Part shown: one piece after another, positions 3,090 to 63,672 of the stretch
How positions within the stretch are numbered: the first letter of the stretch is position 1
Layout of the letters: each line of letters opens with the position of its first letter
Origin: Minisyncoccota bacterium
Lineage (GTDB): Bacteria > Patescibacteriota > Minisyncoccia > Phycocordibacterales > UBA5272
Reading direction: 5' to 3'
NCBI GenBank assembly: GCA_041651055.1
Contig: JBAZJW010000001.1
Location: 177,021 to 241,020 of the forward strand
DNA length: 64,000 nucleotides
Made by a program: the position numbers and the translations under genes
Notes under the pieces: model-generated
Database searches by the model: none
What the model saw: only the letters and a program-made list of their open reading frames with translations
What the model was told of the DNA's origin: nothing

Positions 3090-3793
3090 TTTTCCTTTTC
3101 TATATTTTCATGAAGAAAAATATCTTCTTTTGGAAACGTAGCATTATCACGGATAAAACTCTTTCCCATCCCTTTACGAAATCTATGCCGCGATCTCGTA
3201 TATGCGAAAAGTGCAAGTGTGCTTAAGGTAAGCAATGCGCCGAGTCCCGCAGATAACAAATCTTTTGTTGTATCAAAAGGGTCATTGCCTCCGATAAATA
3301 AGTACCCTATGGCCGCATCGTACTTGAGCACGGTCACCCATTCAAAAATTTCATAGAACACTCCAAGTGTGAGTACGGCCATGAAAGGAACGAGGTAACC
3401 CCAAAAACCTTTTATCTGTGCAACGCGTAAGAAAAATTCACGAAGTGGATACACAATTAAAAGCCCAAAAGAAAAGTGGACGAATTTATCGTACATATTA
3501 TCGTTCACATTAAAGATATCTCCTATAGTTTTACCGAATGGTACAGACCCGTAATTGTAATGAGATCCAACAAGATGTAGCATGATAAATATCGTAATCA
3601 ATGTAAGCGACAATTTTGAAAACTGAATATACCAAACACAAAAAAAGTAGACAACAGGAACAGAAAGAAACACTGTTTTATTTTCTAAAAACCAATTCTT
3701 TTCACTTGCTGGGTACCATGCGGACCATAGCCATACACAAACAAAGAAAAAAAGGAGAATATATTTGTAATAGGTATTAAAAAATAATTTCAT
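3086..3793 (-). CDS. polytopic membrane protein, YjdF/DUF2238-like
   Basis: 235 aa with multiple TM segments; weak resemblance to YjdF-type inner membrane proteins. Confidence 0.35.
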   Translation of the reverse strand: MKLFFNTYYKYILLFFFVCVWLWSAWYPASEKNWFLENKTVFLSVPVVYFFCVWYIQFSKLSLTLITIFIMLHLVGSHYNYGSVPFGKTIGDIFNVNDNMYDKFVHFSFGLLIVYPLREFFLRVAQIKGFWGYLVPFMAVLTLGVFYEIFEWVTVLKYDAAIGYLFIGGNDPFDTTKDLLSAGLGALLTLSTLALFAYTRSRHRFRKGMGKSFIRDNATFPKEDIFLHENIEKEN

Positions 3794-3803
3794 AAAGATA
3801 CGG

Positions 3804-4415
3804 TTAGCGTCTTGAAAGTCTCCTCATTCTTTTGAAAAGACGATACTCAATAAGCATGAGCATAATGCCTAGAGAGACAATCACGAACGTCGCCTCAAAC
3901 AAAAACTCAATATTCTGCTCCCATTCACTTCCCAAAAAATAACCAACCAGCCCATATAAGAGAACGTAGGCGATTTCCCCAGCGATTTCGATCATAAAAA
4001 ACGTTTTGTATTTCATTTTTCCAAGCCCTGCAAGAATATTCACCAAAGGACCGACAGTTGTCAAAAATCTACTAAAGAAAATAAGAGAGTACGAGAACTC
4101 TCTAAGGTAAAGGATGACAGATTCATACAAGCGAGAAGCCAAGATTCTTCTAAATCCTATTTTTTGTAATATCTCGACACCGTACAAACGAGCCAAAACA
4201 TAACCCGTCAAATCCCCAAAAAAATTACCGAGGAATGCTACGACAAGAACCCATGTAAGACTAAAATATCCTTGGGCCGCGAATGCGCCTGACGCAGCGA
4301 GAACAGCACTCGACGGAAGCGGCGCCACAAGTGCCGCAAGATAAGAAACCAAAAAAAGCGCAACATATTTATAGAGCAGGAGGAACGAAAGTACTGAATC
4401 AAGAATCGTAATCAT
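3804..4415 (-). CDS. DedA/VTT family membrane protein
   Basis: YKYVALFLVSYLAALVAPLPSSAVLAASGAF...GNFFGDLTGY typical of DedA (SNARE-associated) family. Confidence 0.7.
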   Translation of the reverse strand: MITILDSVLSFLLLYKYVALFLVSYLAALVAPLPSSAVLAASGAFAAQGYFSLTWVLVVAFLGNFFGDLTGYVLARLYGVEILQKIGFRRILASRLYESVILYLREFSYSLIFFSRFLTTVGPLVNILAGLGKMKYKTFFMIEIAGEIAYVLLYGLVGYFLGSEWEQNIEFLFEATFVIVSLGIMLMLIEYRLFKRMRRLSRR

Positions 4416-4416
4416 G

Positions 4417-4788
4417 CTACCTCTGTTTATGTTTTAGGGAATCCAGATACGTACGAACATCATCTTTGATCAGCACAAGAAAAATTGATACGGGGACTCC
4501 GCTTGTTATAGATTCCTTATTGAGTGTTATGTTCGGATACTTTTCATCTGTAATGCGCATTCTATTTTTTAAATACTCTTCCGGTATCATAAATGTTTGA
4601 TTGATATACCCAAACGTCATCCAGGGCTGTATGTTTTCAACCTGCACCTCACTTCCGCGAATATGTCTTGTGTGAAAAGTTACATTACTTGCCATGTGTC
4701 GGTAACGTAAAACAAGAAAAAAGATTGCACAAAAGAGAATGCTCATAGCTGTAAGAAAAAGAATCTGGTATGTATATTTTTTAGACAT
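4417..4788 (-). CDS. hypothetical membrane-anchored protein
   Basis: 123 aa, single N-terminal TM. Confidence 0.35.
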   Translation of the reverse strand: MSKKYTYQILFLTAMSILFCAIFFLVLRYRHMASNVTFHTRHIRGSEVQVENIQPWMTFGYINQTFMIPEEYLKNRMRITDEKYPNITLNKESITSGVPVSIFLVLIKDDVRTYLDSLKHKQR

Positions 4789-4908
4789 ATAAGAAAAAGA
4801 AAGGATTCAACATACATAAAAGTGTACCATAATTTTTTATCAATCATTAAAGGAATAGGCTTTTAGTATCAAAACCTTAACGTTGCACTCTTCCAAGAAA
4901 GGTTTAGA

Positions 4909-5757
4909 ATGAGCTACATGAACAAAATCTCAAGAAAAACGATACTTTTTCTCCTTGCACTTCTTGTGGCGATACTTGCCGTCTCTTTGGTTACTGCTCC
5001 TGATGAAAGCAAAGAAGCATCCTTCATCTCTCATATCATTGCCCCTCTTCAGAAAGAAATACCGATACTTCAAAAGAAGCAGCTCTTTGAATACGTTGAG
5101 ATTATAGATAGCTGCGGACCGTACTTTACAGGAACATGTGTCAATGTTCGAAAAGAACCAAGCAGTACATCAGAAGCGGTCACAAAACTTCGTAATGGTA
5201 TTGTTCTTAAAGTTGAGAATAAAGTGGTGACGAACGGAGAAACGTGGTACAAGGTAACCTTTGATGAGTGGCTCCGCTACCCAGAACGAGTTACGGGCGA
5301 CTGGTATGTTTCCTCTACGTATGCAAAATTATTTTTAGACGAAGGCCCACAAGAACTTTTGGAAAATGTGGTTTCGACAAGTTCGAAACATATCATCGTT
5401 GACCGCTCTTCACAAAAACTCTATGCGTATGATGGCGATGTGCTTTTTATGGAAGAACCTGTATCGACAGGAATAGAAGGCTCACTCACACCGCGTGGAA
5501 TTTTTAACATTTATAGAAAAACTCCGAGCCGTTACATGCAAGGACCTCTTATTGGTATCAGCGAAAAGTACTACGATCTCCCTGGTGTGCCGTGGAATCT
5601 TTACTTCACCGAAGATGGGGCAGTGATTCATGGAGCATACTGGCATGACCATTTTGGAAAGCGTTGGTCTAGTGGTTGTGTGAACATGTCACCAGAAAAA
5701 GCAAAAGAACTGTATGAGTGGGCAGATGTCGGAATCAAAGTTACAGTACAAGATTAA
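4909..5757 (+). CDS. L,D-transpeptidase (YkuD domain) with N-terminal TM and SH3-like region
   Basis: Catalytic signature IHGAYWHDHFGKRWSSGCVNM (His ... Ser-x-Gly-Cys). Confidence 0.8.
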   Translation: MSYMNKISRKTILFLLALLVAILAVSLVTAPDESKEASFISHIIAPLQKEIPILQKKQLFEYVEIIDSCGPYFTGTCVNVRKEPSSTSEAVTKLRNGIVLKVENKVVTNGETWYKVTFDEWLRYPERVTGDWYVSSTYAKLFLDEGPQELLENVVSTSSKHIIVDRSSQKLYAYDGDVLFMEEPVSTGIEGSLTPRGIFNIYRKTPSRYMQGPLIGISEKYYDLPGVPWNLYFTEDGAVIHGAYWHDHFGKRWSSGCVNMSPEKAKELYEWADVGIKVTVQD

Positions 5758-18049: not shown

Positions 18050-19711
18050 TTAAGATAATCCATCAATATACTGTATTGGTGTTATACCATAATCCCACAC
18101 AGTTGAACTTCTTGAAGGGTCAACTGCCCCATGAACCGCAACACCAAGAACACCATTGTCTTTATCAACTACTGGTGAACCACTCATTCCTTTGTAAATC
18201 GGTTTATCAATTGTAAATCTCTCAATACTAAGTATTCCTATACCGTTACTTTTTGAACTAATTTTTCCTTCGTAACATTGTGGAGTGTCATTGGTTCTAT
18301 ATCCAGGAAATCCAACAACCGTTATAGCCTCTTTAATTTGAGGAGTTTCAATTGTGCTTTTTTCAAGACTAAAGAATGTTACTGTTGTTGGTGCTAATAT
18401 TTTTAAAACTGCTAAATCAGGAATAGAGCTTTGTTTTACAACCTCAGCTTTGTATACGTCCTTAGTTTCAGAGTTGTAAACTTCAACTATTCCACAAGCA
18501 CCATCTATAACATGATAACAAGTTACAAGCCCAACATCTCTCAACATGAAAGCTGTGCCAGTATATCCGACAGAAGTTTTAATTACCCATATTGCACGTT
18601 TCAATTCATCAATTGCACTAACAGGTAAGTCTACTGAGTGTGGGTCTATTAAACGATTAAGCCTATTTTTAAACTTCCTGTATATTGGATCTTTCCCACT
18701 TCTGATAAATTTTAAGAAAGATATTTTCCCATATAAAACTGGTGTTAGATCTGGTTCATCTTGACGACTGGGATGTAATCTAAAATACACGTTCGAGGCA
18801 TTTACTTTTCCAAATCTTTCCCAAGCATATAATATTGTTCTCAATTCTCTAATGTATTTTCTGGAAACATTACTAAATTCATTAACGGTAAGGCCAGTAA
18901 CTTCTTGTCTCATATAATGTCTCTGTAACCTAACTTTTGACTGATTAATTGAGAAATTATTTTTTTGAATGATTGAAGTTAATTTTTGTCCACATGTAAT
19001 TATTCCGTGTGAACGGGAAACAATATCAAGATTTAGTTCTCTAGAGTTTGTAGAAAAAGTAATGTCATCTGCATATCTTGTATATAAACAATTAGTTTCT
19101 TTTGCTAACTTTTGTAAATCATTATCTAATGTATAGCAAATTAGATTTGATATAACTGGAGAAGTGGGGGCTCCTTGTGGAAGCTTACCCTCATAACAAC
19201 AAATTTGAGCAAGTAAAATTGCAACTTCTCTTGGGAAAGAAAAAGCTGTTGATTGAAATAATCCTATTATACGACCTACATGAATTGATGGGAAGAAGTT
19301 TTCTAAATCAATATTAAAAACAAGATTTTTTCTTGCGTGTAGTCTTGCGTTATCTAAAATATCTTTATCTTTACAAAATCCATAAACAGATGATTTTGGT
19401 TTATAAGCTAAGTATAGAATATATGCCAATTTTTTTTGTAAAATTTTAAGATTAGATATTGGTGCTAAAATCTCTCTTTGTCCACCACTTTTTTTCTTAA
19501 TATAAAATTTTGTATACGGAACTGGTTTATCTGGTCTGTAAAGTAGGTAAATTATTGTAGAGTAGTCAACCTCTAAAAGGTCAGCAACGTCTTGTTTGCT
19601 TTTTAGTGCTCTAAAAATTTTTAGAATATCGTCATCACTTCTTGTTAAGGTTGGTTTCATTTCTGTGTAAAAGAGAGAGTGGAATAATTCTTCCTCCTGC
19701 AAAACAAACAC
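18050..19711 (-). CDS. retron-type reverse transcriptase fused to C-terminal trypsin-like (S1) serine protease
   Basis: RT motifs KKKSGGQREI, NARLH (NAxxH), FNIDLENFFPSI, LPQGAPTSPVISN, YTRYADD, RQEVTGLTVN (VTG); C-terminal GTAFMLRDVGLVTCYHV (His), IPDLAVL (Asp), GMSGSPV (Ser) triad; GTG start. Confidence 0.8.
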   Translation of the reverse strand: MFVLQEEELFHSLFYTEMKPTLTRSDDDILKIFRALKSKQDVADLLEVDYSTIIYLLYRPDKPVPYTKFYIKKKSGGQREILAPISNLKILQKKLAYILYLAYKPKSSVYGFCKDKDILDNARLHARKNLVFNIDLENFFPSIHVGRIIGLFQSTAFSFPREVAILLAQICCYEGKLPQGAPTSPVISNLICYTLDNDLQKLAKETNCLYTRYADDITFSTNSRELNLDIVSRSHGIITCGQKLTSIIQKNNFSINQSKVRLQRHYMRQEVTGLTVNEFSNVSRKYIRELRTILYAWERFGKVNASNVYFRLHPSRQDEPDLTPVLYGKISFLKFIRSGKDPIYRKFKNRLNRLIDPHSVDLPVSAIDELKRAIWVIKTSVGYTGTAFMLRDVGLVTCYHVIDGACGIVEVYNSETKDVYKAEVVKQSSIPDLAVLKILAPTTVTFFSLEKSTIETPQIKEAITVVGFPGYRTNDTPQCYEGKISSKSNGIGILSIERFTIDKPIYKGMSGSPVVDKDNGVLGVAVHGAVDPSRSSTVWDYGITPIQYIDGLS

Positions 19712-20452: not shown

Positions 20453-20523
20453 GCTGGGGTACAAGGACTCGAACCTCGATACTCAGGACCAAAACCTGAT
20501 GTCCTACCATTAGACGATACCCC
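20453..20523 (-). tRNA. tRNA-Gln (anticodon UUG)
   Basis: Cloverleaf folds by hand: 7 bp acceptor stem (U1-A72), U8, D arm GTCT/GGAC, anticodon stem TCAGG/CCTGA with loop TTTTGGT (U33, anticodon TTG), T arm CGAGG-TTCGAGT-CCTTG, discriminator G, no encoded CCA. Confidence 0.75.
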
Positions 20524-20813
20524 AAGATGTAAGTTTTTAGTTGATAGTTATTATTTTTTAGTTAATGCAAAATGAAATTCATTGTGCGGCATGCAATACC
20601 AAAAAAATGACTATCAGTTATTAGCTAGGAGAAATTAAATTCAGAGAATTTCTTACCCCTAACTCCTAACCGTAAACTCCTAACTAACCAAAACACAATA
20701 CCATTTTTGAGAGATTTTTGGAAGAGGGAAGGAAAGATTCTCGGTGAGAGCGCTGTCACAGTAAGCTTTTTGAAATTATACACAGCGTCCACAGAACACC
20801 ACGAAAATTTTGC

Positions 20814-21762: not shown

Positions 21763-21896
21763 TACTCTTCCGTTTGAATATTGAAAATTGTTTCATTGAA
21801 TATTGCCTAGAATATTGTGCGTATCTTTTCCCATATTCACACTCCTCATATATACTGTTCTCTATGAAGCTACTCGTTCTCAGTCTACGTCTCATC

Positions 21897-22412: not shown

Positions 22413-22994
22413 ATGTCATCCATTCCTGCAGACGTTTTATCACGAGCAAATGCAATAGGATTCTTTGGTGTTCTGATTCTTCTCATCGCATATTTCTTTG
22501 AAGGTCCACCACTTGGACTTTTTGATATTGGTAAGCATTTACCATCACAAGAAATACCTACGTATTACCAAGTGACGAAAGTTACCGATGGCGACACGAT
22601 TCATGTGAATATAGAAGGTGCAGATGAGGTGATCCGTCTTATTGGTATCAACACACCTGAAACTGTCGACCCACGACGACCAGTACAATGCTTCGGCAAA
22701 GAAGCCTCTGCCAGAATGAAAGAACTTGTCGGAGGGAAAATAGTACGTCTCGAATATGACGACTCTCAAAGCCTTCGTGATACTTACAATCGTTTACTTG
22801 CTTACGTGTACCTTGAAGACGGGGAAATGATCAATCGTAAAATGATTGCAGAAGGGTATGCCTATGAATACACCTACATGACACCGTACAAATATCAGCG
22901 TGAATTTCGTGAATTACAAACCCTCGCACGCACGTCAGCGCGTGGCCTTTGGGCACCAGAAACCTGTAACGGAAGTAAAACACTTTCGAAATAA
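22413..22994 (+). CDS. membrane-anchored thermonuclease (SNase-like)
   Basis: TDGDTIHVNIEGADEVIRLIGINTPE ... RLLAYVYLEDGEMINRKMIAEGYA typical of staphylococcal nuclease homologues. Confidence 0.75.
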   Translation: MSSIPADVLSRANAIGFFGVLILLIAYFFEGPPLGLFDIGKHLPSQEIPTYYQVTKVTDGDTIHVNIEGADEVIRLIGINTPETVDPRRPVQCFGKEASARMKELVGGKIVRLEYDDSQSLRDTYNRLLAYVYLEDGEMINRKMIAEGYAYEYTYMTPYKYQREFRELQTLARTSARGLWAPETCNGSKTLSK

Positions 22995-23000
22995 ACCATT

Positions 23001-23744
23001 ATGGAGACCATACAATTTCTTCTCAAATTTCTTTTTAAATTAGCAATCGCACTCATCATCGCAAGCTTCGTATGGTGGCTTGTAACTGCACTGTATCCCG
23101 CACTAAGTCTTCGAACATTTTTCCTTGCGTCTGGCACTGAAAATAGTTGGTTACCTGCTCCTGGAAGTTGGGGGCCATTACTCGGCAAACAAAAAGTTCC
23201 GAGTGAGTACGATAATATTTATGTTCCGGGTCCACCATACAACGGATATTCCGATGTATACAATAATCCATATGGTAGCGGCGCACAGGTAGATTTCATT
23301 ACCTACACAACTACAGGTGTACAAATAACACGTAATGGGCAAGACATCACAAGAGATGTATCGCAAGGTGGCCAAACTGGAACATCACAAGGAGGGGTGG
23401 ACCGAAACGGATATGCTTCGAAAGAACTCTACATACGCAACCTTTCTATTTATCAAGGTGGATCTATTTATACTGGTATCAGTTTTGTCGGTGAAGCGCG
23501 AAATGTAATGTTTAGTAATGGGAAGTTTCCTATCATCATCGTGGACAATATGGGGCGTGTGGCAACGGTTGCCATTGCGGAAGCAACATCGAATTGGTCA
23601 GTACCAGGATGGGCAAGATTCCAAGTGAAAATAAATGGGGTGATGCCGGTGAAAACGGCGTGCACAATGGTGTTCCAGTCCGGTGTGCCAGAGAATTACA
23701 ATCAGACACCGCTTCGTGTCGCAATACCGATAGTGTGTAATTAA
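23001..23744 (+). CDS. hypothetical secreted/membrane-anchored protein
   Basis: N-terminal TM, Gly/Thr/Tyr-rich body; followed by AAGCCATC/GATGGCTT terminator at 23753-23782. Confidence 0.4.
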   Translation: METIQFLLKFLFKLAIALIIASFVWWLVTALYPALSLRTFFLASGTENSWLPAPGSWGPLLGKQKVPSEYDNIYVPGPPYNGYSDVYNNPYGSGAQVDFITYTTTGVQITRNGQDITRDVSQGGQTGTSQGGVDRNGYASKELYIRNLSIYQGGSIYTGISFVGEARNVMFSNGKFPIIIVDNMGRVATVAIAEATSNWSVPGWARFQVKINGVMPVKTACTMVFQSGVPENYNQTPLRVAIPIVCN

Positions 23745-23837
23745 GAAAAGAAAAAAGCCATCACAGAGGATGGCTTTTTTCATAAAGAAAGGTTCGTATA
23801 TTCTACGTATGAATATGAAGAAGACACAATAGAGATA

Positions 23838-24245
23838 TTATACAATTTCGAAAGCTCCATCTGAACCTCTTCTTACTTCCGGATGATCGACATCACCAGC
23901 CGCAGCTCTTTTTATGTCACCAACATCAGGGGGGAGGGTTGGTCTCAAAACTCTTGAATGTGAACCCCACTCGTGTGGGGGTTCTTTAGGTTCCCATTCA
24001 GAAACCTCTGATGGCCTAGCATCTCCCAGAACCGTTATCCCTTTTTCTTTCAAAAATTTTTCGAGATCATTGTTTGAAAGATTTAAGTGGACAGCGACTC
24101 CAAATAACTTGAAGCGTTCTTTTGGTGTAAGCACAGTACCGAGAATTCCTGCTTCCTGTCTCTCTCGCAGTACTACTTCCAGCGCTTCATCAAGTGAATT
24201 CGGTATTACTTTTTCCGGAGCACTGTTATTTCCAAATGACTCCAT
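23838..24245 (-). CDS. hypothetical protein
   Basis: 135 aa ORF co-directional and adjacent to yqeY-like gene. Confidence 0.3.
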   Translation of the reverse strand: MESFGNNSAPEKVIPNSLDEALEVVLRERQEAGILGTVLTPKERFKLFGVAVHLNLSNNDLEKFLKEKGITVLGDARPSEVSEWEPKEPPHEWGSHSRVLRPTLPPDVGDIKRAAAGDVDHPEVRRGSDGAFEIV

Positions 24246-24251
24246 AGAAGT

Positions 24252-24719
24252 TTATGCGGTGAGTCTATCGATAACAGCTTTTACAAGTGCACCGTCAGCA
24301 TTCGCACCAAGTTCTTTCATCATAATTCCCACGAACTGTCCTTTCTTTGTCGGATCAAGTGGAGAAGCAATGAGTTTCGCTTTCACTGCGGCTTCGATAT
24401 CTGCTTCAGACATCTGTGCAGGGAGAAGCTCTTCGATGATGGCGAGTTCATTTCTTTCATCATCAGCGAGTTCTGGACGACCACCTGAGATGAACTGTTC
24501 CATAGAATCTTTACGCTGCTTTGCGAGGCGCTTGATGACCTTCATACAGTCCTCATCTGAGAGAACTTCCTGTGGAGGACGACCTTGCGTCACGAGTTCA
24601 TTGGTAAATGCAGCTGAAAGCATACGAAGTGTACCGAGACGTACAGCGTCTTTTGCAATCATTGCCGCTTTGATTTCAGCTTTAATTTTTTCTTGCATAG
24701 TCATTTTATTATAGCACAA
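24252..24719 (-). CDS. yqeY: GatB/YqeY domain protein
   Basis: MQEKIKAEIKAAMIAKDAVRLGTLRMLSAAF ... EELLPAQMSEADIEAAV characteristic of YqeY. Confidence 0.8.
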   Translation of the reverse strand: MCYNKMTMQEKIKAEIKAAMIAKDAVRLGTLRMLSAAFTNELVTQGRPPQEVLSDEDCMKVIKRLAKQRKDSMEQFISGGRPELADDERNELAIIEELLPAQMSEADIEAAVKAKLIASPLDPTKKGQFVGIMMKELGANADGALVKAVIDRLTA

Positions 24720-24836
24720 AATGCCTAGTCAAAAGTCTGTAAAGTTAAAAGCCCATAAAGGAGACTCGGACACAAAGAGTCAAACAAAAAACCAGCCGCG
24801 TACGGCTGGTGGGTGAATCGCGAGACATTTCTCGGC

Positions 24837-25133
24837 TCATTGTGATTGTGTGAACAATCTTTCGAGGTCATCGAGACCATTTACGTGCAGTACTGTTCCA
24901 TCTCTCGTGGTTATGACAATATGAGGAACGACCTTTGCAGGATATTCCTCCATGAGCTCCTTCCATTTTGGTCCTCCGAAGAAGAACTCTTCAGGGACGA
25001 CGTTCTGAAGTCGGTGTTTAAGCAAGCTTTTGGCTCGAGCGCAAAAACCGCACGGCGGAGATATTCTGGTGAAAATCACGACTCCTCGGACCTCTTCGGA
25101 TGAGAGTGCTCTAGGTTGTTCGACGGCAAACAT
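24837..25133 (-). CDS. glutaredoxin/thioredoxin-like protein
   Basis: CGFC (CxxC) redox motif after a beta-strand VVIFTRISPP; start placed at internal ATG. Confidence 0.5.
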   Translation of the reverse strand: MFAVEQPRALSSEEVRGVVIFTRISPPCGFCARAKSLLKHRLQNVVPEEFFFGGPKWKELMEEYPAKVVPHIVITTRDGTVLHVNGLDDLERLFTQSQ

Positions 25134-25167
25134 CTTTTGTGAACCTTTCTGAAAGGAGAAGATTATC

Positions 25168-25210
25168 AACAAGGCGAGGCCTTGTAGCTACAAGGCCTCG
25201 CCTTGTTACC
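25168..25210. repeat. perfect palindrome (twin hairpin) AACAAGGCGAGGCCTTGT-AGCT-ACAAGGCCTCGCCTTGTT
   Basis: Each 18 nt arm is itself the hairpin ACAAGGC-GAG-GCCTTGT; a single arm recurs at 30735-30752. Confidence 0.6.
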
Positions 25211-25542
25211 AGCAAAAGTGCTGACACTTATTCATACCATATTTATATGGAAGCGGGCAAATGGGAAAATATTTAATACAACAATATTTAATATTCAAAT
25301 GAATCAAATGCATTTAATCCAAAAAACTCCTCTAGGCTTGCAGGGGTTCTCTGAATTAGTATTTACCTCTTTGTATTTAATTGAATATTATTACGAGCAG
25401 TCTGTATAAAAAAATAGAACCCCCAAAGTGGAGGTTCAGAATGGTCCTTAAGCATTCAATGTGTGAGGATGTTTCGTCAACGGACGATCCACACAGGTTA
25501 CGGAATGGGCGCCGAATGGCTCGGGCCCAACCACCACGCAGT

Positions 25543-26016
25543 TCAGGAGAACGTGCCCGCAGCGACCGTGCCAGCGTCGTCGGCCTGCTTCAGCGCAACT
25601 TCGTCGGCGCCGGGCTGATCCTTGGCCGTGTCGGTCGTGCCGGCGTCCTGCTGCTGTTGACCTTCGATGTTTTCACCAGCGCCGAACTGCTTTTCGCCGT
25701 GCAAAATATCGGTGGTGCCCGCCGCGGTCTTGGCCACGCCGCCTTGCTGCTGCTGGATCAATTTCGACTCGTCGTTGCCGATCTGGTTCACGGCGCCCGT
25801 GGTGCCTTGTTCCATCTGCGGGCTTTGGCCGGTGGCGGTCACGCTGATGTCGGCAGGTTGCGCGCCGGCGTTCACGGTGGTCTTGTGCGGATCGGAGGCG
25901 GCCAGCGCGTCGGGCTTCACGGCGGAATGGATCACATCGGTGCCGTGCGCGGCGCCAACGGCCTGATTCAAAAACAGCGCACCGAGGATCGAGAGACGCA
26001 ATTTCAAGTGGTTCAT
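25543..26016 (-). CDS. secreted Ala/Gly/Thr/Gln-rich protein encoded in a ~65% GC insert
   Basis: ATG preceded by AGGAG RBS, signal peptide MNHLKLRLSILGALFLNQAVGAAHG; composition sharply different from flanks. Confidence 0.45.
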   Translation of the reverse strand: MNHLKLRLSILGALFLNQAVGAAHGTDVIHSAVKPDALAASDPHKTTVNAGAQPADISVTATGQSPQMEQGTTGAVNQIGNDESKLIQQQQGGVAKTAAGTTDILHGEKQFGAGENIEGQQQQDAGTTDTAKDQPGADEVALKQADDAGTVAAGTFS

Positions 26017-26285
26017 GGAAAGCTCCTGGTTGAATTGAAGGGAACGGGAACAACGTGCCACAACGGGATGTTGCGACAAGTAATACTCTACCACATACAT
26101 CAAAATCCTGTCAAGGGATATGGGGATAGTCAAAAGTCTATAAAGTTGAAAGTTCATAAAGTAAATACGGCATACAAATATTCAATGATTCAATTTTCAA
26201 TATTCAAACGATAATCAAAACCACTCCCTCAGTATCCACTTTTGACTTTACGGACTTTCTAAACTTTATAGACTATACTAAGACC

Positions 26286-27344
26286 ATGTCTCCCACCATT
26301 ATCATCACCATTTTCGGCACCATTATCACGGTACTTCTTGCATTACTTCTCATTAAATTAAATACGCCAAAGAAAAAAGACGAAGAGGACCAAACCTTTC
26401 TTATTCTTCAAGACCAACTCGAGCGATTGCGAAATACCGTCGAAAATAAATTGGAACGCTCATCGTCCGAGCTCCATCAAGTACTTCATCGCCAAGGAAC
26501 AGAGGCGAACCGTCTCATCACTGAAATCACCCGTGAACTCACTGAAGTGAAAGAAGGGAACAAGCAAGTTTTCTCCATGACCGAGCAACTTCAAAATCTT
26601 GAAAAGGTTCTGACTCACCAAAAGCAACGAGGAAATCTCGGTGAAGCATCCCTTGAACTCATTCTCTCGAATATGCTCGCCCCAGGCCAGTACGAAATGC
26701 AACACTACTTCAAAAATGGTGAAGTAGTGGACGCCATCATTCATACCAAAGAAGGAATTATTCCTATTGATGCGAAGTATTCACTGGATAATTACCAACG
26801 CCTCATGAATGCAACGGATGAAGAAGAAACAGCGTACTATCAAAATGAATTCAAAAAGGATATTCAAAAAAGAATCGATGAAACCTCAAAGTACATTCGT
26901 CCGGAAGAGGGGACGCTACCCTTTGCTTTCATGTTCATTCCCGCAGAAGGAATATACTACGACCTTCTCGTGAACCAAGTATCAAAAGGTGCTATCAATA
27001 CACAGAATCTTATCGAATATGCGTACAACAAACGAAAAGTAATTATCGTGTCTCCGACGACATTTTATGCATACTTACAATCAGTACTCTATGGATTCAA
27101 GGCGTTTAAGATCGAAGAAAGTGCGAAGCATATTCAACAACGCGTAGAAGAGCTTGGTCGTCACCTCACAGCCTATGAAGACTATATGAAGAAGTTAGGT
27201 GTAACACTTGGCACCAGTGTGAATCATTACAATGCTGCCTATAAAGAATTAAAAAAGGTAGACAAAGATGTACTACGTATTACAGGTGAAGCAATGGGGA
27301 TAGAACCAGCGCTCTTGGATAAGCCGACATTTGAGGAAGAATAA
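26286..27344 (+). CDS. rmuC: DNA recombination protein RmuC
   Basis: N-terminal TM, coiled coil, C-terminal block AFMFIPAEGIYYDLL typical of RmuC. Confidence 0.75.
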   Translation: MSPTIIITIFGTIITVLLALLLIKLNTPKKKDEEDQTFLILQDQLERLRNTVENKLERSSSELHQVLHRQGTEANRLITEITRELTEVKEGNKQVFSMTEQLQNLEKVLTHQKQRGNLGEASLELILSNMLAPGQYEMQHYFKNGEVVDAIIHTKEGIIPIDAKYSLDNYQRLMNATDEEETAYYQNEFKKDIQKRIDETSKYIRPEEGTLPFAFMFIPAEGIYYDLLVNQVSKGAINTQNLIEYAYNKRKVIIVSPTTFYAYLQSVLYGFKAFKIEESAKHIQQRVEELGRHLTAYEDYMKKLGVTLGTSVNHYNAAYKELKKVDKDVLRITGEAMGIEPALLDKPTFEEE

Positions 27345-27385
27345 AAGATAGTCGAGAGCTGATAGTCGGCAGGTCAAATACACAT

Positions 27386-27418
27386 AAAAAAGCCGCCAGT
27401 ACTCTGGCGGCTTTTGAT
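27386..27418. terminator. bidirectional terminator
   Basis: AGCCGCCAG-TACT-CTGGCGGCT hairpin flanked by A-run and T-run. Confidence 0.6.
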
Positions 27419-27431
27419 TCATTGGTGGCAC

Positions 27432-27758
27432 TTACTGAAAGCGCGACCAAAGTGTTTTTCGCGGTGAAGCATCTTTGATGTCGATCTTTTTCGGCCTGTC
27501 AAAAATGGCATAGATGGCGACGAACAGGGCAACGGGCGCGAAAAGGATCATTGCCCAGAAACAGCACCGCTCCTCATCGTCCCCTGAAAAAGAGATTCGC
27601 CCTTTCGCAAGGAAGCGATAAATCAGTATCCCGAGCAGTCCGGGAGTAAAGTAAAGCGCAGGCCCGGCGAGGTCGGGGGACAATCCGAACACCACAAGCA
27701 ATTGAGCCATGTGACTCAGAAGCCAGTCCAGCCAAGCAATCAAACTTTCTTTCATCAT
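27432..27758 (-). CDS. hypothetical membrane protein in a ~55% GC segment
   Basis: 108 aa, three TM segments; a 29 aa TM peptide ORF (27755..27844, minus) overlaps its start by ATGA. Confidence 0.4.
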   Translation of the reverse strand: MMKESLIAWLDWLLSHMAQLLVVFGLSPDLAGPALYFTPGLLGILIYRFLAKGRISFSGDDEERCCFWAMILFAPVALFVAIYAIFDRPKKIDIKDASPRKTLWSRFQ

Positions 27759-27962
27759 TTACCACTCAGGTAAATTGAAATCACCGCCCAGACGGTCCCG
27801 ACGACCACCAAAAGTGAAGCCATAAAACCCCAGTCAATTTCCATGATTTTCTCCGGTGAAGGTGTTAAAACTAAGAGCCCTCCATCATACTACCATTCTT
27901 GTGAGTATAGTCAAGAGCATACTCTTGCACACAATTGTAAAATAGTGTATAATTTCACAACT

Positions 27963-28280
27963 ATGTCATTCGCAGTTATTCAAACAGGGGGTAAACAATA
28001 CAAGGTTGCCGTTGGCGACGAAATCGCAGTTGAGAAATTGGCCGGCGATTTGAAGGTTGGAGATAAAGTTACTATTAGTGAAGTAGTCCTTAAGGATGAC
28101 GGCGCATCGACAACTCTCGGAGCTCCTTATATCACAGGATCTAAAGTAGAAGCTACTATTATCGAATCAGGCAAGCTTGATAAGGTAATGGTCGTACGTT
28201 ATCGACAGAAATCACGTTATCACAAGCGTAACGGTCACCGTCAGCCGTACATGAGTTTGAAGATTGAAGCAATTAACTAA
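27963..28280 (+). CDS. rplU: 50S ribosomal protein L21
   Basis: MSFAVIQTGGKQYKVAVGDEIAVEKL N-terminus; TGTATAAT extended -10 about 12 nt upstream. Confidence 0.85.
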   Translation: MSFAVIQTGGKQYKVAVGDEIAVEKLAGDLKVGDKVTISEVVLKDDGASTTLGAPYITGSKVEATIIESGKLDKVMVVRYRQKSRYHKRNGHRQPYMSLKIEAIN

Positions 28281-28390
28281 AACACAGAAGTAAGGAGAAT
28301 GAAGAAAGGATAAAGAAAAGTCGCATCTACGATGCGACTTTTCTTTATCCTTGTATCACCATCTTCCTACTTCGTACTCCTTGCTTCTTT

Positions 28391-29017
28391 TTAATTCCTT
28401 CTCTCCAGCGCTGACTTAAACGTATCTCTATCCACGTACTCAAGTTCGAGTCCGCTCGATAGCCCTCGTGCAAGGTGTGAAAGAGTAACTTTTTCAATAC
28501 CGACAATTTGCTTAATTATCTTTTCTACATACTCCGTAGTCGTATCTCCATAATCCGTAACAGGAAGGGCAAAAATGACTTCTGTGAGGCTTTCATCTTT
28601 CAATGCGGTATGTATGTGATTCGTGAGTTCTCGTATACGTATGAGCTCAGAAGGCTTTTCTGTAAGTGGTGGCACAAGACCGCCCAAAATAAAATAGAGA
28701 CCATTGTATGAGCCTGTCTTCTCCACTGCATCTAAGTCAAGTTCTTTTTCGACAATCATCAACTCTCTATGATCACGAGAAGCATTATCGCAAATATCAC
28801 ATAAAACTTTTGCCATTTGGGCATTTTTATCACCAAAGAATCGATAGCATTTTTCGCACTGTTTACCAGTGAACTTTAATTCTTCAAGCGCTTTTATGAG
28901 CTGCTCTTTGTAATGAGAATGTTCACGCAACAAAAAATATACGAAGCGTTTTGCTTGCTTCGGACCAATGCCAGGGAATCTCATAAAGAGTTCAGTAAGT
29001 CTGTCGGTAGCGTTCAT
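28391..29017 (-). CDS. recR: recombination protein RecR
   Basis: HhH N-terminus, C4 zinc finger (CEKCYRF ... CDIC), Toprim-like C-terminus. Confidence 0.9.
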   Translation of the reverse strand: MNATDRLTELFMRFPGIGPKQAKRFVYFLLREHSHYKEQLIKALEELKFTGKQCEKCYRFFGDKNAQMAKVLCDICDNASRDHRELMIVEKELDLDAVEKTGSYNGLYFILGGLVPPLTEKPSELIRIRELTNHIHTALKDESLTEVIFALPVTDYGDTTTEYVEKIIKQIVGIEKVTLSHLARGLSSGLELEYVDRDTFKSALERRN

Positions 29018-29116
29018 AATTTTGTTAAGTATAACAAAATTCGTTATTCGTTAGTAGTTATTCGTTAGGAAATGCAAAACTAATAACGAATAACATCCTA
29101 ACGACTAACGGTATTA

Positions 29117-30595
29117 CTAGAATTCTGGTACATTCACCGTTGGCATAGAGAAGTCGCCAAACTCAGACTTTTCAACGGATACGAAAGACGTCTTCTTGTC
29201 ATCAAAGTAAAGCTCAATCATTCCTGTTGGACCGTTACGGTGCTTTTCAATCAAAATTTCTACAATGTTTTTGCGTTCTGTATTCTCGCCGTATTTATCT
29301 TCACGATGAATAAACATAACCACGTCCGCATCTTGTTCGATAGATCCTGAATCACGAAGGTCAGAAAGTCGAGGTTTACCACCACGAGATTCAACAGCAC
29401 GAGAAAGCTGCGAGAGTGCGATCACTGGAGTATTAAATTCCTTGGCAAGCGCTTTCAATGATCGAGAAATTTCTGTCACTTGGTTTACCATATTGTCATA
29501 ACTCTTGGATGTTCCCATCAACTGCAAGTAGTCCACGATAATGAGTCCGATAGGTTTGTCAGTGTTAAGTCGACGAAGTGTACTTCTCATATTCAAAATA
29601 GTATTCGCGGCTTTATCATCGACGAAAATCGGAGCCTTCATGAGCTCGTGCATGCCTTGCTGAAGGCGAGAAAACTCTTCATCAAGGGTGAGCTTCGCAG
29701 TGCGGAGTTTCCAGCTATCCACCTGAGACTGAGCCGAAAGCATACGGTCGACAAGTTGTTCCTTGCTCATTTCCAGTGAGAAAATGGCCACAGGAATACC
29801 ATGCTTCACCGCAGCGTTACGTGCAAAGTCGAGCGCGAGAGATGTCTTTCCAACAGATGGACGTGCCGCGAGAATAATGAGGTCAGATGGCTGAAAGCCA
29901 GAGAGTTTGTTGTCTAAATCTCTGAAGCCACTCGGCGTACCACGCATACCACCATCTTTTTCGGACATCTTTTCAATACGAGACCAGGTTTCATCAATCA
30001 ATTCGTTGAAACCAATAAGACGATCCGAAGATCCACCCTTGGTTGTGATTTCATAAATACTTTTTTCGGATTCTTCGAGGATAGACTCGAGTGAATCAGC
30101 TTCTTCGTAGGCTATTTCTCCAATATGAGATGTTGCCTCGATGAGCTTTCGCAGTAATTCCTTTTTTCGAACAATCTGAGCGTAGTACTTTACGTTTGCC
30201 GCCGAACCAACAAGCCCGAGAAGGTCAGATAAGTACGGTGCACCACCGATTTGATCAAATTCTTTTCTTTGACGAAGCGCAGCTGATACTGTGAGAATAT
30301 CTACTGGTTCTTTTTTGTTGACGAGCTCATCAATGACTTCATAAATAATCTGATGCTTAGCTGCATAAAAACTCTGTGCATTTACAATATCTGCAATATC
30401 AAAAAGTGCATCTGATGAGAGAAGAAGTGACCCAAGCAGTGCCTTTTCAGATTCCAAATCTTGAGGAGGAATGCGCGGACCGCGAAGAGGATCTTCTACC
30501 TGCTTTCGATCGTAGCTTTCATAATTCCCTCCGTATTTCCCACGTGAACGAGGTTTGCTTTTTGAAGAGGCGGATAGTTGGTCAAGTGGAATCAT
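29117..30595 (-). CDS. dnaB: replicative DNA helicase DnaB
   Basis: Walker A ARPSVGKTSLALDFARNAA, RecA-like C-terminal domain. Confidence 0.9.
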   Translation of the reverse strand: MIPLDQLSASSKSKPRSRGKYGGNYESYDRKQVEDPLRGPRIPPQDLESEKALLGSLLLSSDALFDIADIVNAQSFYAAKHQIIYEVIDELVNKKEPVDILTVSAALRQRKEFDQIGGAPYLSDLLGLVGSAANVKYYAQIVRKKELLRKLIEATSHIGEIAYEEADSLESILEESEKSIYEITTKGGSSDRLIGFNELIDETWSRIEKMSEKDGGMRGTPSGFRDLDNKLSGFQPSDLIILAARPSVGKTSLALDFARNAAVKHGIPVAIFSLEMSKEQLVDRMLSAQSQVDSWKLRTAKLTLDEEFSRLQQGMHELMKAPIFVDDKAANTILNMRSTLRRLNTDKPIGLIIVDYLQLMGTSKSYDNMVNQVTEISRSLKALAKEFNTPVIALSQLSRAVESRGGKPRLSDLRDSGSIEQDADVVMFIHREDKYGENTERKNIVEILIEKHRNGPTGMIELYFDDKKTSFVSVEKSEFGDFSMPTVNVPEF

Positions 30596-30929
30596 GTAGG
30601 TAAGTGTACAGGAGCAGGCAGGTCTTGCACAAAAGAAAATAGTATTGTACTCCGCGTAAAACAGTGGATTGTGGGGATAAGGGGGCAGTTTTCAGTTTGT
30701 AGCTTACAGTTTACAGAAAATACGAAATTACAAGGCGAGGCCTTGTAGTAAATAGAATAGTATTATAGAATAATAAAGCTTCACCCCCCCTTCAGCAAGG
30801 AGACTTCCACACCCACCGAGACTCGAAAAGCAAGCAGTTGCCATGTTCCTCGGTCGGGTACTTTTTATTTTCAACAGCCGAGAGTGTCGACAGTATTTGT
30901 TTGAATATTGAATATTTAATTATTAAATA

Positions 30930-35722: not shown

Positions 35723-36145
35723 TTAGTCTTGCAGTGGTAGGGCGCGAAGGATTTTCATCTCCTTGCGTACACGCAGGAATGCAAACACTGTAGCAATGGC
35801 AGCCAGCGATATGCCGCACCATGCCATGAATGATACGTAGTCAGTGTGCACATACTTTGTGATCCAGAGATACAAGAATCCTGCGATCAAAGCCCCTCCA
35901 GCGACACCAGACAACATCTTCTTCATGATAGATGCTGCTATGAAGAAGAAGGAAGCTGTGAATGATATGACCACGAATGTGGTGATCTCGTCTTCCCACT
36001 TGGGGTACAGGGTCGTCGCATCAGTTCCCAAAAAGAGCAGGACAGACCACGGCAAAAGCATCCAAAATGCGAAACCGTAGAGCATGTCTGAATATGCCTT
36101 GGAAAAGACGGGACCCCAATCAACCTTTTCAACGTCTGATTGCAT
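35723..36145 (-). CDS. hypothetical membrane protein (GC-rich insert)
   Basis: ATG preceded by AAGGAG RBS; four TM segments; about 58% GC. Confidence 0.4.
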   Translation of the reverse strand: MQSDVEKVDWGPVFSKAYSDMLYGFAFWMLLPWSVLLFLGTDATTLYPKWEDEITTFVVISFTASFFFIAASIMKKMLSGVAGGALIAGFLYLWITKYVHTDYVSFMAWCGISLAAIATVFAFLRVRKEMKILRALPLQD

Positions 36146-36159
36146 GGCAATCTCCTTGA

Positions 36160-36594
36160 CTATGTGCGGCGCAATTTCTGTGCCGCGATGTGAACGAACA
36201 AGAATACCGTCGCGATGGCCGGCAAGACCACGGCGCAGACGACCGTGATGGTGGTAGCGTAGACCGTGCCCGCCTGTGCGAACAACGCGAAGGAAGACGC
36301 TGCCCAAAACATGCTGCATGCGACCAAAAGTACCACACGTCCTTGCCTCAACTCCATAAGGTTCCACACTTGCAATAGAACCATTACAAGCGGGGTAAAG
36401 AAACACCCCGTCATGCCGATGCCCATGGACCAGAACCATTCTTGCTGCCACTCGGGCCCGCTGAGCACTGCGCGCCTGAGCACGAGGGTCAGGAGACCAA
36501 AAACAGCTGCGACGGCAGACACGCTGTAAAAACGCATCAGCCACCAGTTAAAGTACTCCAAAGCCGATTCAGGCTTTTCCAAGACGATTGTCAT
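36160..36594 (-). CDS. hypothetical membrane protein (GC-rich insert)
   Basis: ATG preceded by AAAGGAGCACCCC; four TM segments. Confidence 0.4.
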   Translation of the reverse strand: MTIVLEKPESALEYFNWWLMRFYSVSAVAAVFGLLTLVLRRAVLSGPEWQQEWFWSMGIGMTGCFFTPLVMVLLQVWNLMELRQGRVVLLVACSMFWAASSFALFAQAGTVYATTITVVCAVVLPAIATVFLFVHIAAQKLRRT

Positions 36595-41187: not shown

Positions 41188-41598
41188 TCAGGCTTCAATA
41201 CGAATCCTGCTGTTGTACGCATCCCACAACTTGCGAAGAGCAAGGGGGTACTGCACCCGGAAGTTATTGTGGAGCTCATTTCCCACTTCAACCCTTGGGG
41301 CAAGGACGAAGGCTCCGAGATTGAATATTTTCCTGTTCTTGAGGTGCCTTGCGAACCTGCTGGAAAATCTCTTGTTCGGAAAGGCTTCAAAGAAGCTGAT
41401 AACCGGGAAATTTTCCCAATTGGCGCCGTCCTGAAACATCTCCCTTAAAGCTTTGAGATCACTGAGAGCCTTCGGGGCCTCCAGTTTTCCTTGGCGATCG
41501 AGGATTTCAACCCTTTCAATCGCCCAGTTGACAGCGAACTTTGCCTGAGCCAAATGTTCAGGGTCGGGTTTTTCCTTCTTTTTCACAGAGGTTACCAT
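41188..41598 (-). CDS. hypothetical protein (GC-rich insert)
   Basis: ATG preceded by AAGGAGAAGCTC RBS; about 52% GC. Confidence 0.35.
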   Translation of the reverse strand: MVTSVKKKEKPDPEHLAQAKFAVNWAIERVEILDRQGKLEAPKALSDLKALREMFQDGANWENFPVISFFEAFPNKRFSSRFARHLKNRKIFNLGAFVLAPRVEVGNELHNNFRVQYPLALRKLWDAYNSRIRIEA

Positions 41599-63373: not shown

Positions 63374-63672
63374 GGTAGCTTCATTGTACCATAGGAGATT
63401 TTTAATTTAGAAGTTCAAGTAATAATTTCTTCTCCTTTTAACATCAGTCGCTCAGGACGAATTCAATTCTTTTTCCTTTTTATCTTTTTCCATCGAACTA
63501 AACGGTATAATTTTTTGCTAAAAATTTGCCTCACTCTCGCGCCGTCAGTCGACCGGTAAATTGGTCGACACCTGTAGACGGGCTGCGAGAGTTAGTTCTC
63601 ACGGAAAAAGATGGGTTTAATTGAATATTGATTCATTGAATATTTTTACTCCTAACCCCTAACTGCTGCCTC

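Follow-up and report, generated by a model that had tools for sequence, protein, structure and literature searches.

We analyzed a 64-kb stretch of DNA (hereafter, the window) from a metagenome-assembled genome (MAG) of Candidatus Paceibacterota. The window contains a small and sharply GC-rich gene, here called gene X (NCBI MFA5131916.1, locus tag WC444_01160), in the spacer between the divergent genes yqeY and rmuC. On balance, we favor the view that gene X is the current payload of a single-copy expression module, conserved in its clade, at a hypervariable yqeY-rmuC site. The shell of the module (promoter, leader and terminator) would be inherited or exchanged within the clade and would stay recognizable. 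The open reading frame (ORF) inside the shell would turn over extremely fast, with its composition constrained and its sequence not. The constraint would hold the ORF to a product rich in the residues A, G, T, S, Q and P and to codons ending in C, with a GC content at third codon positions (GC3) of 0.7-0.98. Below, the gene X locus is called WIN and the loci of relatives are numbered with the prefix L.

The gene X transcription unit and its product

The initial annotation of this DNA described a sharp GC-rich insert in a background of ~40% GC and, within it, one complete gene with an AGGAG Shine-Dalgarno (SD) site. Both observations held. The mean GC content of the window is 41.3%, and 200-nt windows across positions 25500-25999 have GC contents of 0.635-0.665. 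Defined by at least 0.60 GC in 150 nt, the island extends from 25439 to 26042 and peaks at 0.71. No island in the 64 kb is stronger, and there is only one other (36151-36553), with a GC content of 0.61. The island holds a single complete gene, gene X, on the minus strand. It begins with an ATG at 26016, ends with a TGA at 25545-25543 and encodes 157 amino acids.

We compared the composition of gene X to that of native genes. Gene X has a GC content of 0.64 and a GC3 of 0.80 (0.66, 0.46 and 0.80 at codon positions 1, 2 and 3), versus 0.42 and 0.38±0.085 for native genes. That is, its codon usage, which the annotation had proposed to check, is strikingly non-native, and its codon table is inverted relative to that of native genes. 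The GC-richness spans the coding sequence (CDS) and the proximal 3' untranslated region (UTR) and is weaker in the leader.

The SD site is exceptional in this genome, and native genes do lack such sites, as the annotation had supposed. An SD core (counting even a 4-mer, at -4 to -18) was found at 2 of 44 native starts, versus 8.8% of random positions. A -10-like hexamer lies no more than 22 nt from the ATG at 22 of the 44, versus 14% at random; TATAAT-like boxes thus sit 4-22 nt before the ATG in half of these curated starts. Because -10-like boxes are close to the ATG and SD cores are rare, most native mRNAs appear to be leaderless or nearly so. Mostly leaderless starts are consistent with the frequent absence of the anti-SD motif in Parcubacteria, in only 48% of which it was detected (Tsurumaki et al., RNA 2022, PMC9297842).

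An SD, a long leader and a higher GC3 seem to mark accessory genes in this genome. Several other orphan genes in the window have a strong SD, a strong promoter or both, and raised GC3 (values given for this set are 0.72, 0.58, 0.59 and 0.60). Those at 35723-36594, 41188-41598 and 27432-27758 are all on the minus strand. The second GC island (36151-36553) belongs to this set, as does a gene for a membrane protein preceded by a TTGACT...TGgTAGTAT promoter (27914-27887). Pfam gave no match for any of them.

Gene X is a single ORF with its own promoter and its own factor-independent terminator, both of which are predictions from consensus scans (Table 1). The promoter scored 10/12, has a TG upstream of the -10, and is one of three such sites in the 64 kb. 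The first 23 nt of the leader form a stem-loop, UGUCGCAAC-AUCCC-GUUGUGGCA (26078-26056), and the leader as a whole has a predicted fold of -16.4 kcal/mol (z = -1.8). The AGGAG is at 26027-26023, 6 nt upstream of the ATG. Downstream of the CDS, the region from 25408 to 25545 is significantly structured (z = -2.7). The terminator scan found a 9-bp stem followed by TATTTTTTTA.

We found that gene X is protein-coding. Three-base periodicity is strong, with GC3 > GC1 > GC2. Comparison with the sole homolog, the protein P0002 (52-54% identical to X, on contig L001), showed indels of 3, 9, 12 and 15 nt, all of them in frame. In the conserved blocks, synonymous changes outnumber non-synonymous changes. 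The two genes have the start codon, the SD and a signal-peptide-like N-terminus in common, and the DNA alignment runs on beyond the stop codon. The transcript of gene X folds no better than shuffled sequences (z = +1.4). Rfam gave no match for 25380-26300, even at E <= 5, and searches of the window (at the gathering threshold) and of the loci of 12 relatives gave only tRNAs.

The product of gene X is probably a low-complexity, disordered protein with a Sec-type N-terminus. By inspection, positive, hydrophobic and small-residue regions (K5 and R7; LSILGALFL; AVGAAHG) can be made out in the N-terminus (MNHLKLRLSILGALFLNQAVGAAHG), and residues 1-25 (26016-25942) resemble a signal peptide. This pattern is conserved in P0002 and absent from the other payloads described below. 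Beyond residue 25, the protein is of low complexity and rich in Q, G, A, T and D. The AlphaFold model has a mean confidence score (pLDDT) of 47 and is disordered except for helices at 4-23, 76-92 and 137-148. The two short helices coincide with the conserved blocks shared with P0002. The payload would thus combine a Sec-type signal peptide, a disordered body and two short conserved helical blocks.

Gene X is an orphan. Among ~15 billion proteins we found one relative, P0002, using word-indexed searches of 5.8 billion clusters and exhaustive profile searches of 1.84 billion representatives. A second candidate, P0003, was rejected; it is a repeat protein rich in T, A, S and G and a compositional false positive. 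There were no relatives in JGI metagenome contigs, IMG/VR viral contigs, plasmids or phages. Searches of Pfam, NCBIfam, PHROGs, PADLOC and PDB sequences gave nothing for X or for any other payload. The contig that encodes P0002 is 574 bp; its CDS has a GC3 of 0.80 and its short flanks have ~40% GC. Because of these flanks, P0002 appears to come from an island of the same kind in a different AT-rich genome rather than from a high-GC donor. The annotation had proposed that the best protein matches might be in high-GC Proteobacteria or Actinobacteria; these searches gave no homolog in any high-GC genome.

A recurrent module at the yqeY-rmuC site

We scanned species-representative genomes for RmuC and obtained 80 loci, 41 of them with an RmuC 72-92% identical to that of the window. 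The divergent yqeY/rmuC pair is conserved in ~40 relatives. None of the 80 loci contains a homolog of X. In the 37 relatives that have both flanks, we measured the spacer as the distance between the two start codons. In 12 of the 37 the spacer is 26-50 nt and contains only two back-to-back -10 boxes; we refer to these as empty sites. The spacer is 51-300 nt in 4 and up to 2.06 kb in the other 21. Spacer contents are mostly unrelated between species, as judged by blastn. In the window, the spacer content is 1.58 kb and consists of a glutaredoxin-like (Grx-like) gene and gene X. Since spacer lengths vary widely and 12 sites are empty, the site is hypervariable, and the content in the window is an insertion relative to the empty state.

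We found a homologous module at the same place and on the same strand in 11-12 related species. Ten relatives have a sharp GC island (0.64-0.78) inside the spacer. The spacer makes up 4% of 428 kb of DNA from relatives, yet it holds 10 of the 22 GC islands (p = 4e-9) and 11 of the 13 SD-led GC-rich ORFs (p = 3e-14). Shared ancestry is not taken into account in these p-values, and the relatives are not phylogenetically independent. The islands of relatives contain a minus-strand ORF of 31-93 aa with a GC3 of 0.67-0.98 and a TGA stop. The ORFs have CAAGGAGAA or CCAGGAG in front of them, and a GC-rich 3' UTR and a terminator behind. Thus, the order of the module, with gene X included, is promoter, ~60-nt leader, strong SD, GC-rich ORF of 31-157 amino acids with a TGA stop, GC-rich 3' UTR and terminator. 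More distant relatives (RmuC 56-64% identical) have no such islands, indicating that the module is limited to the clade. Literature searches found no description of this module.

The shell is homologous among these species. A near-invariant cTTGACAAg-17-TGnTAnAnT is common to the modules of 10 relatives. Next in the aligned upstream regions come a TTGTC-type start region, a hairpin and the SD. The leader stem is the same in WIN and L004, preserved by G-U/A-U exchanges. Because members of a profile match it by construction, we searched with leave-one-out promoter-leader profiles (nhmmer). The WIN leader was the sole match in the 64-kb window (E = 0.006). L002 (1.5e-7), L017 (3.5e-5), and L003 and L004 (~0.003-0.005) were also recovered, as were two loci on which the profile had not been trained, L040 (down to 3e-7) and L082 (2.4e-7). 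All matches were at the expected place and on the expected strand, and the module is single-copy in the window. On the rmuC tree, modules and empty sites are intermixed, and modules reach from the crown down to the deepest branch (L036, L035/L040). In L005, the nearest neighbor of WIN, the shell is the same and encloses an unrelated 37-aa ORF.

Two further features were seen downstream of payloads. L019 (~5190-5220) and L023 (~4780-4810) have, on the minus strand, a 9-codon mini-ORF (MKVRNNGPG followed by a stop) with an AAGGAG SD and a GC hairpin behind it; the two copies differ only synonymously. In the module 3' UTRs of L002, L003, L005, L017 and L021, a TGACGA...TCGTC hairpin recurs with GGTGACAAAGGAC(T)CACC after it. 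RNAalifold found no pairs in a consensus fold across module 3' UTRs.

Payloads evolve fast, and they retain their GC3. We compared three pairs of payloads by the ratio of non-synonymous to synonymous substitution rates (dN/dS). For X and P0002, dN/dS was 0.63 with a dS of 0.59; flanks are not available for this pair. For L002 and L003, the payload had a dN/dS of 0.69 (dS 0.59), versus 0.00 for rmuC (dS 1.33) and 0.07 for yqeY (dS 0.37). For L035 and L082, the payload had a dN/dS of 0.47 (dS 0.37), versus 0.01 for rmuC (dS 0.61). Payload dS is comparable to or below that of the flanks, and is below that of rmuC in both testable pairs, as expected for co-divergence in place. In addition, GC3 is 0.68-0.81 in both members of each pair, versus ~0.36 in the flanking genes. 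GC3 was kept while the flanks diverged (dS 0.6-1.3), indicating that GC-richness is maintained and is not the fading mark of an import, although this comparison, with flanks for only two pairs, is indicative only.

The same bias is seen in the pooled payloads. GGC (84%), GCC (61%), ACC (64%) and AAG (73%) predominate, and the third position is C in 53% of codons and A in 7%, the inverse of native usage. In the encoded proteins, A, G, T, S, Q and P are overrepresented. The sole relative of the L035 payload lies 170 nt from a divergent rmuC, that is, in the same slot. The homolog search with the L036 payload found no candidate. Across payloads there is weak similarity at the boundary of the stop codon and the 3' UTR (CTGAACCTSGGCGGCC; z up to 7.5 versus codon shuffles), and this similarity ties deep and crown lineages together.

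Alternative accounts and known systems

Several points weigh against gene X being the resident payload of a conserved module. X itself is missing from all sampled relatives, and its sole homolog is on a short contig that provides no context. Beyond the three pairs, payloads cannot be aligned even at the DNA level, so that descent in place would be argued from the shell, three orthologous pairs and the weak similarity at the stop codon. In the leave-one-out searches L016, L019, L035 and L036 gave weak matches (0.05-0.3) and L021 was not recovered; L021 also has its Grx-like gene and GC-rich ORF in a different order than WIN. The small ORFs of relatives were picked by SD and GC, which biases them toward the pattern, and all of the genomes are MAGs. 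The codon usage of X is as expected of a high-GC proteobacterial donor. There is a small but real chance that the payload was replaced from outside.

One alternative is that the CDS or the whole unit was recently transferred from a high-GC bacterium, with the GC content and the SD being unameliorated features of the donor. The initial annotation favored recent foreign acquisition, and part of its case stands: the composition is non-native, the SD is exceptional, and X is absent from ~40 relatives, 12 of which have empty sites. Preferences for GGC, GCC, ACC, CCG, AAG and CAG, together with the GC3 of 0.80, are typical of high-GC Proteobacteria, and an SD with a long leader is unlike native genes. 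X resembles an islet from such a donor in its atypical GC content and codon usage, its absence from relatives and its orphan status. Nonetheless, we consider this account unlikely, and recent acquisition is not the best reading of the locus. Homology to the modules of 11-12 relatives runs through the promoter and the leader as far as the SD; the donor junction would therefore have to be at the start codon. No homolog was found in the high-GC genomes, plasmids, phages and viral contigs searched, and the flanks of the one homolog are like those of a candidate phyla radiation (CPR) genome. GC-rich payloads, including those of sister species, have been kept across speciation, with dS below that of the neighboring rmuC. 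There is no integrase, tRNA or scar at the site, and the repeats around it are native motifs (see below).

It is also possible, and about as improbable, that modules or spacer contents are swapped among members of the clade by uptake and recombination in the flanks, and that X was imported in this way from an unsampled relative. Swapping is compatible with a clade-conserved module as the best explanation for the class as a whole and differs only on how this genome got X. It agrees with all of the data and could account for the patchy distribution. On the rmuC tree, sites with a module, empty sites and sites with other content are intermingled; most spacer contents are unrelated between species; L021 has another gene order; and L005 has a different ORF in the same shell. 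However, there is no direct evidence of recombination breakpoints, the three payload pairs resemble co-divergence in place, and swapping leaves the GC-richness unexplained.

A less likely possibility is that the yqeY-rmuC site is a dedicated, strongly expressed "nursery" that keeps short ORFs GC-rich, SD-led and full of codons ending in C amid an AT-rich, leaderless and SD-free genome. This could be caused by a local GC-favoring process that is tied to the transcription unit and continually remakes the protein. Alternatively, the genes could be tuned to a foreign translation apparatus, e.g., that of a high-GC host cell. Either way, such a nursery would be a new kind of hypervariable locus. We considered other causes of the high GC content. 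RNA structure in the CDS is not supported by the transcript fold, and amino-acid composition fails to explain the GC3 bias. GC-biased gene conversion would fit poorly, because the flanking yqeY and rmuC show no GC enrichment and the island's boundary tracks the transcription unit.

It is highly improbable that the GC-rich segment is a gene for a structured non-coding RNA, with an ORF that is incidental to the lack of stop codons in GC-rich DNA. GC-rich islands in AT-rich genomes are often RNA genes, the 3' UTR is structured, and several frames are open on both strands; the periodicity, the in-frame indels, the synonymous excess in conserved blocks, the unremarkable transcript fold and the lack of an Rfam match all argue against it. 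An assembly chimera, with a high-GC fragment of another organism mis-joined into the contig, has next to no probability despite the sharp composition boundaries, and the annotation's choice between foreign acquisition and chimera was a false dichotomy: a second assembly record (ENA ERZ27247363, a 559-kb contig versus the 775-kb NCBI contig, possibly from the same reads and so not fully independent) matches window 22543-29157 (6,615 bp, both junctions included) at 100% identity, a clade-typical promoter and leader are contiguous with the GC-rich CDS, the same architecture is present in at least 12 independent MAGs from different studies, and mis-joining would have had to produce a complete promoter-SD-ORF-terminator unit by two precise junctions.

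We also compared gene X and the conserved module to known systems. Morons, in the lambdoid-phage work of Hendrix and Juhala, are reportedly autonomous transcription units between conserved genes. Like a moron, X consists of one gene that carries a sigma-70 promoter and a factor-independent terminator of its own, lies between two conserved genes, differs sharply from its neighbors in base composition and has a predicted secreted or surface-type product. Unlike a moron, it does not lie in a prophage: its surroundings are free of phage genes, PHROGs gave no match, and no relative was found among viral contigs. Moreover, the shell of X is conserved at one chromosomal site across the clade while the ORF changes.

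The minimal mobile elements of Neisseria occupy hypervariable intergenic sites of naturally competent bacteria. As at the yqeY-rmuC site, conserved flanks enclose different or no content in each lineage, the distribution is patchy, and there are usually no dedicated mobility genes. Here, in contrast, a homologous promoter-leader-terminator shell recurs with different GC-rich ORFs. Integron cassettes are similar in that small, variable ORFs of the same orientation are found at one site downstream of a fixed expression signal. They differ in that each module here has its own promoter and terminator, there is no adjacent integrase, and no attC-like site was recognized, although no formal search for attC was made. 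By eye, the leader hairpin agrees with the R''/R' boxes at 5/7 positions each, which is not a test.

Among proteins, X resembles small, intrinsically disordered proteins of constrained composition (the hydrophilin or general-stress-protein type) in being of low complexity, rich in G, A, T, S, Q, K and D and predicted to be disordered, with a fast-evolving sequence and a kept composition. Unlike that type, it has no such Pfam or NCBIfam match and has a signal peptide (by inspection), and its amino-acid composition does not account for the GC3 bias.

Flanking features and significance

The genes neighboring the site are yqeY, grx, rmuC, rplU and recR (Table 1). No integrase, recombinase or tRNA is among those adjacent to it. 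yqeY appears to be leaderless, with a TATAAT 4 nt upstream of its ATG. Grx-like genes are also present in the spacers of L006, L021, L025 and L031, and are mutually 27% identical or undetectably similar. In L017, the yqeY-rmuC spacer also contains an ORF for a DDE-type transposase (3285-4253, minus strand; 322 aa), indicating that the site tolerates insertions.

Table 1. Features of the yqeY-rmuC site in the window
Feature	Position	Strand	Basis or comment
yqeY, left flank	24252-24707	-	Pfam YqeY, E = 7e-35; 72-87% conserved in relatives
44-nt direct repeat, copy 1	24726-24769	+	overlaps -35 (TTGACT) of yqeY promoter
Glutaredoxin-like gene, second spacer occupant	24837-25133	-	Pfam Glutaredoxin, E = 3.4e-5; NCBIfam weak
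Predicted intrinsic terminator	25407-25437	-	GAACCTCCACTTTGGGGGTTC, then T-run
GC-rich structured 3' UTR, 105 nt	25438-25542	-	first ~75 nt conserved with homolog L001
Gene X CDS, 157 aa + TGA	25543-26016	-	translation, codon-position GC
5' leader, ~62 nt	26017-26078	-	terminal stem-loop and AGGAG
Predicted sigma-70-type promoter	26085-26114	-	TTGACA 26114-26109, 18-nt spacer, TG-extended TAGAGT 26090-26085
44-nt direct repeat, copy 2	26127-26170	+	directly upstream of gene X promoter; 82% identical to copy 1
AT-rich tandem TTCAAT/TTGAATA cluster	26176-26211	+	partner 25267-25302, 78% identical
Inverted, rearranged partial copy of repeat	26233-26274	+	inverted repeats I4, I7; within rmuC promoter region
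rmuC, right flank, divergent	26286-27344	+	Pfam RmuC, E = 8e-54; 72-92% identical, 41 relatives

Two families of repeats flank gene X. The initial annotation reported a 34-bp direct repeat at 24727 and 26128, with an inverted and rearranged copy at 26238-26274. The positions were right and the length was not: a 25-nt repeat is exact at these two positions and nowhere else in the window (0 expected by chance), and the similarity extends to 44 nt at 82% identity. The repeat is composed of tandem AAAGTYYAT units. The inverted copy is real and begins slightly earlier, at 26233; its arms are 87% identical (26128-26142/26233-26247) and 100% identical (26135-26147/26262-26274). The AT-rich tracts with the TTGAATATTGAA motif family that were said to bracket the gene are also present, at 25287-25298 and 26189-26207. 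This family has 29 matches across the window, versus 15.4±4.2 expected.

Both families recur at other intergenic sites, in relatives or in the window, and on this basis they are native intergenic motifs and not scars of insertion. The AAAGTYYAT family is found in L005, L019, L020 and L023, beside yqeY, downstream of rmuC and downstream of recR; a related motif adjoins yqeY in L019, L023 and L005. We considered the 44-nt repeat as a target-site duplication or att site and rejected it; the motif is intergenic elsewhere and does not bracket the occupied spacers of relatives. Intergenic clusters of tandem 7-8-nt TTGAATA/TTCAAT units are at 21774-21807, 25267-25302, 26176-26211, 30901-30919 and 63621-63650, and may be arrays of binding sites for a regulator or nucleoid protein. 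More generally, the two families are possibly promoter-upstream or protein-binding elements. A perfect 40-nt palindrome (arms AACAAGGCGAGGCCTTGTAG and CTACAAGGCCTCGCCTTGTT; 25168-25207) lies upstream of the Grx-like gene. One of its arms recurs intergenically at ~30735-30753, and it looks like a dispersed element of the repetitive extragenic palindrome (REP) type.

Elsewhere in the window, a gene at 18050-19711 (minus strand) encodes a 553-aa reverse transcriptase fused to a trypsin-like protease and matches RT-Protease_XI (type XI retron) of PADLOC with E = 1e-171. It lies where the window is poorest in GC (17-20 kb, 0.31-0.34), is adjoined by a tRNA-Gln gene (20453-20524, minus strand) and looks like a defense islet in a CPR genome.

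If gene X is the payload of a conserved module, its product is most likely abundant and exported, to the cell surface or the medium, as the signal-peptide-like N-terminus and the predicted disorder suggest. There it might act as a rapidly diversifying interaction or protective protein. The lineage is thought to live attached to other cells.

Our results also call for caution, in that recent horizontal transfer is not proved by a GC spike plus an SD; here, the atypical composition has outlasted speciation. If the 16S rRNA of the clade also has no anti-SD, the conserved AAGGAG of the modules raises a question about translation initiation (PMC9297842). The locus consists of a conserved shell at a fixed address, with a payload that is remade in almost every species and whose codon usage is the reverse of the genome's. 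Genomes of the CPR/Patescibacteria are full of orphan small proteins thought to mediate the attached lifestyle. This locus is a tractable example of how such orphan genes arise and are expressed.

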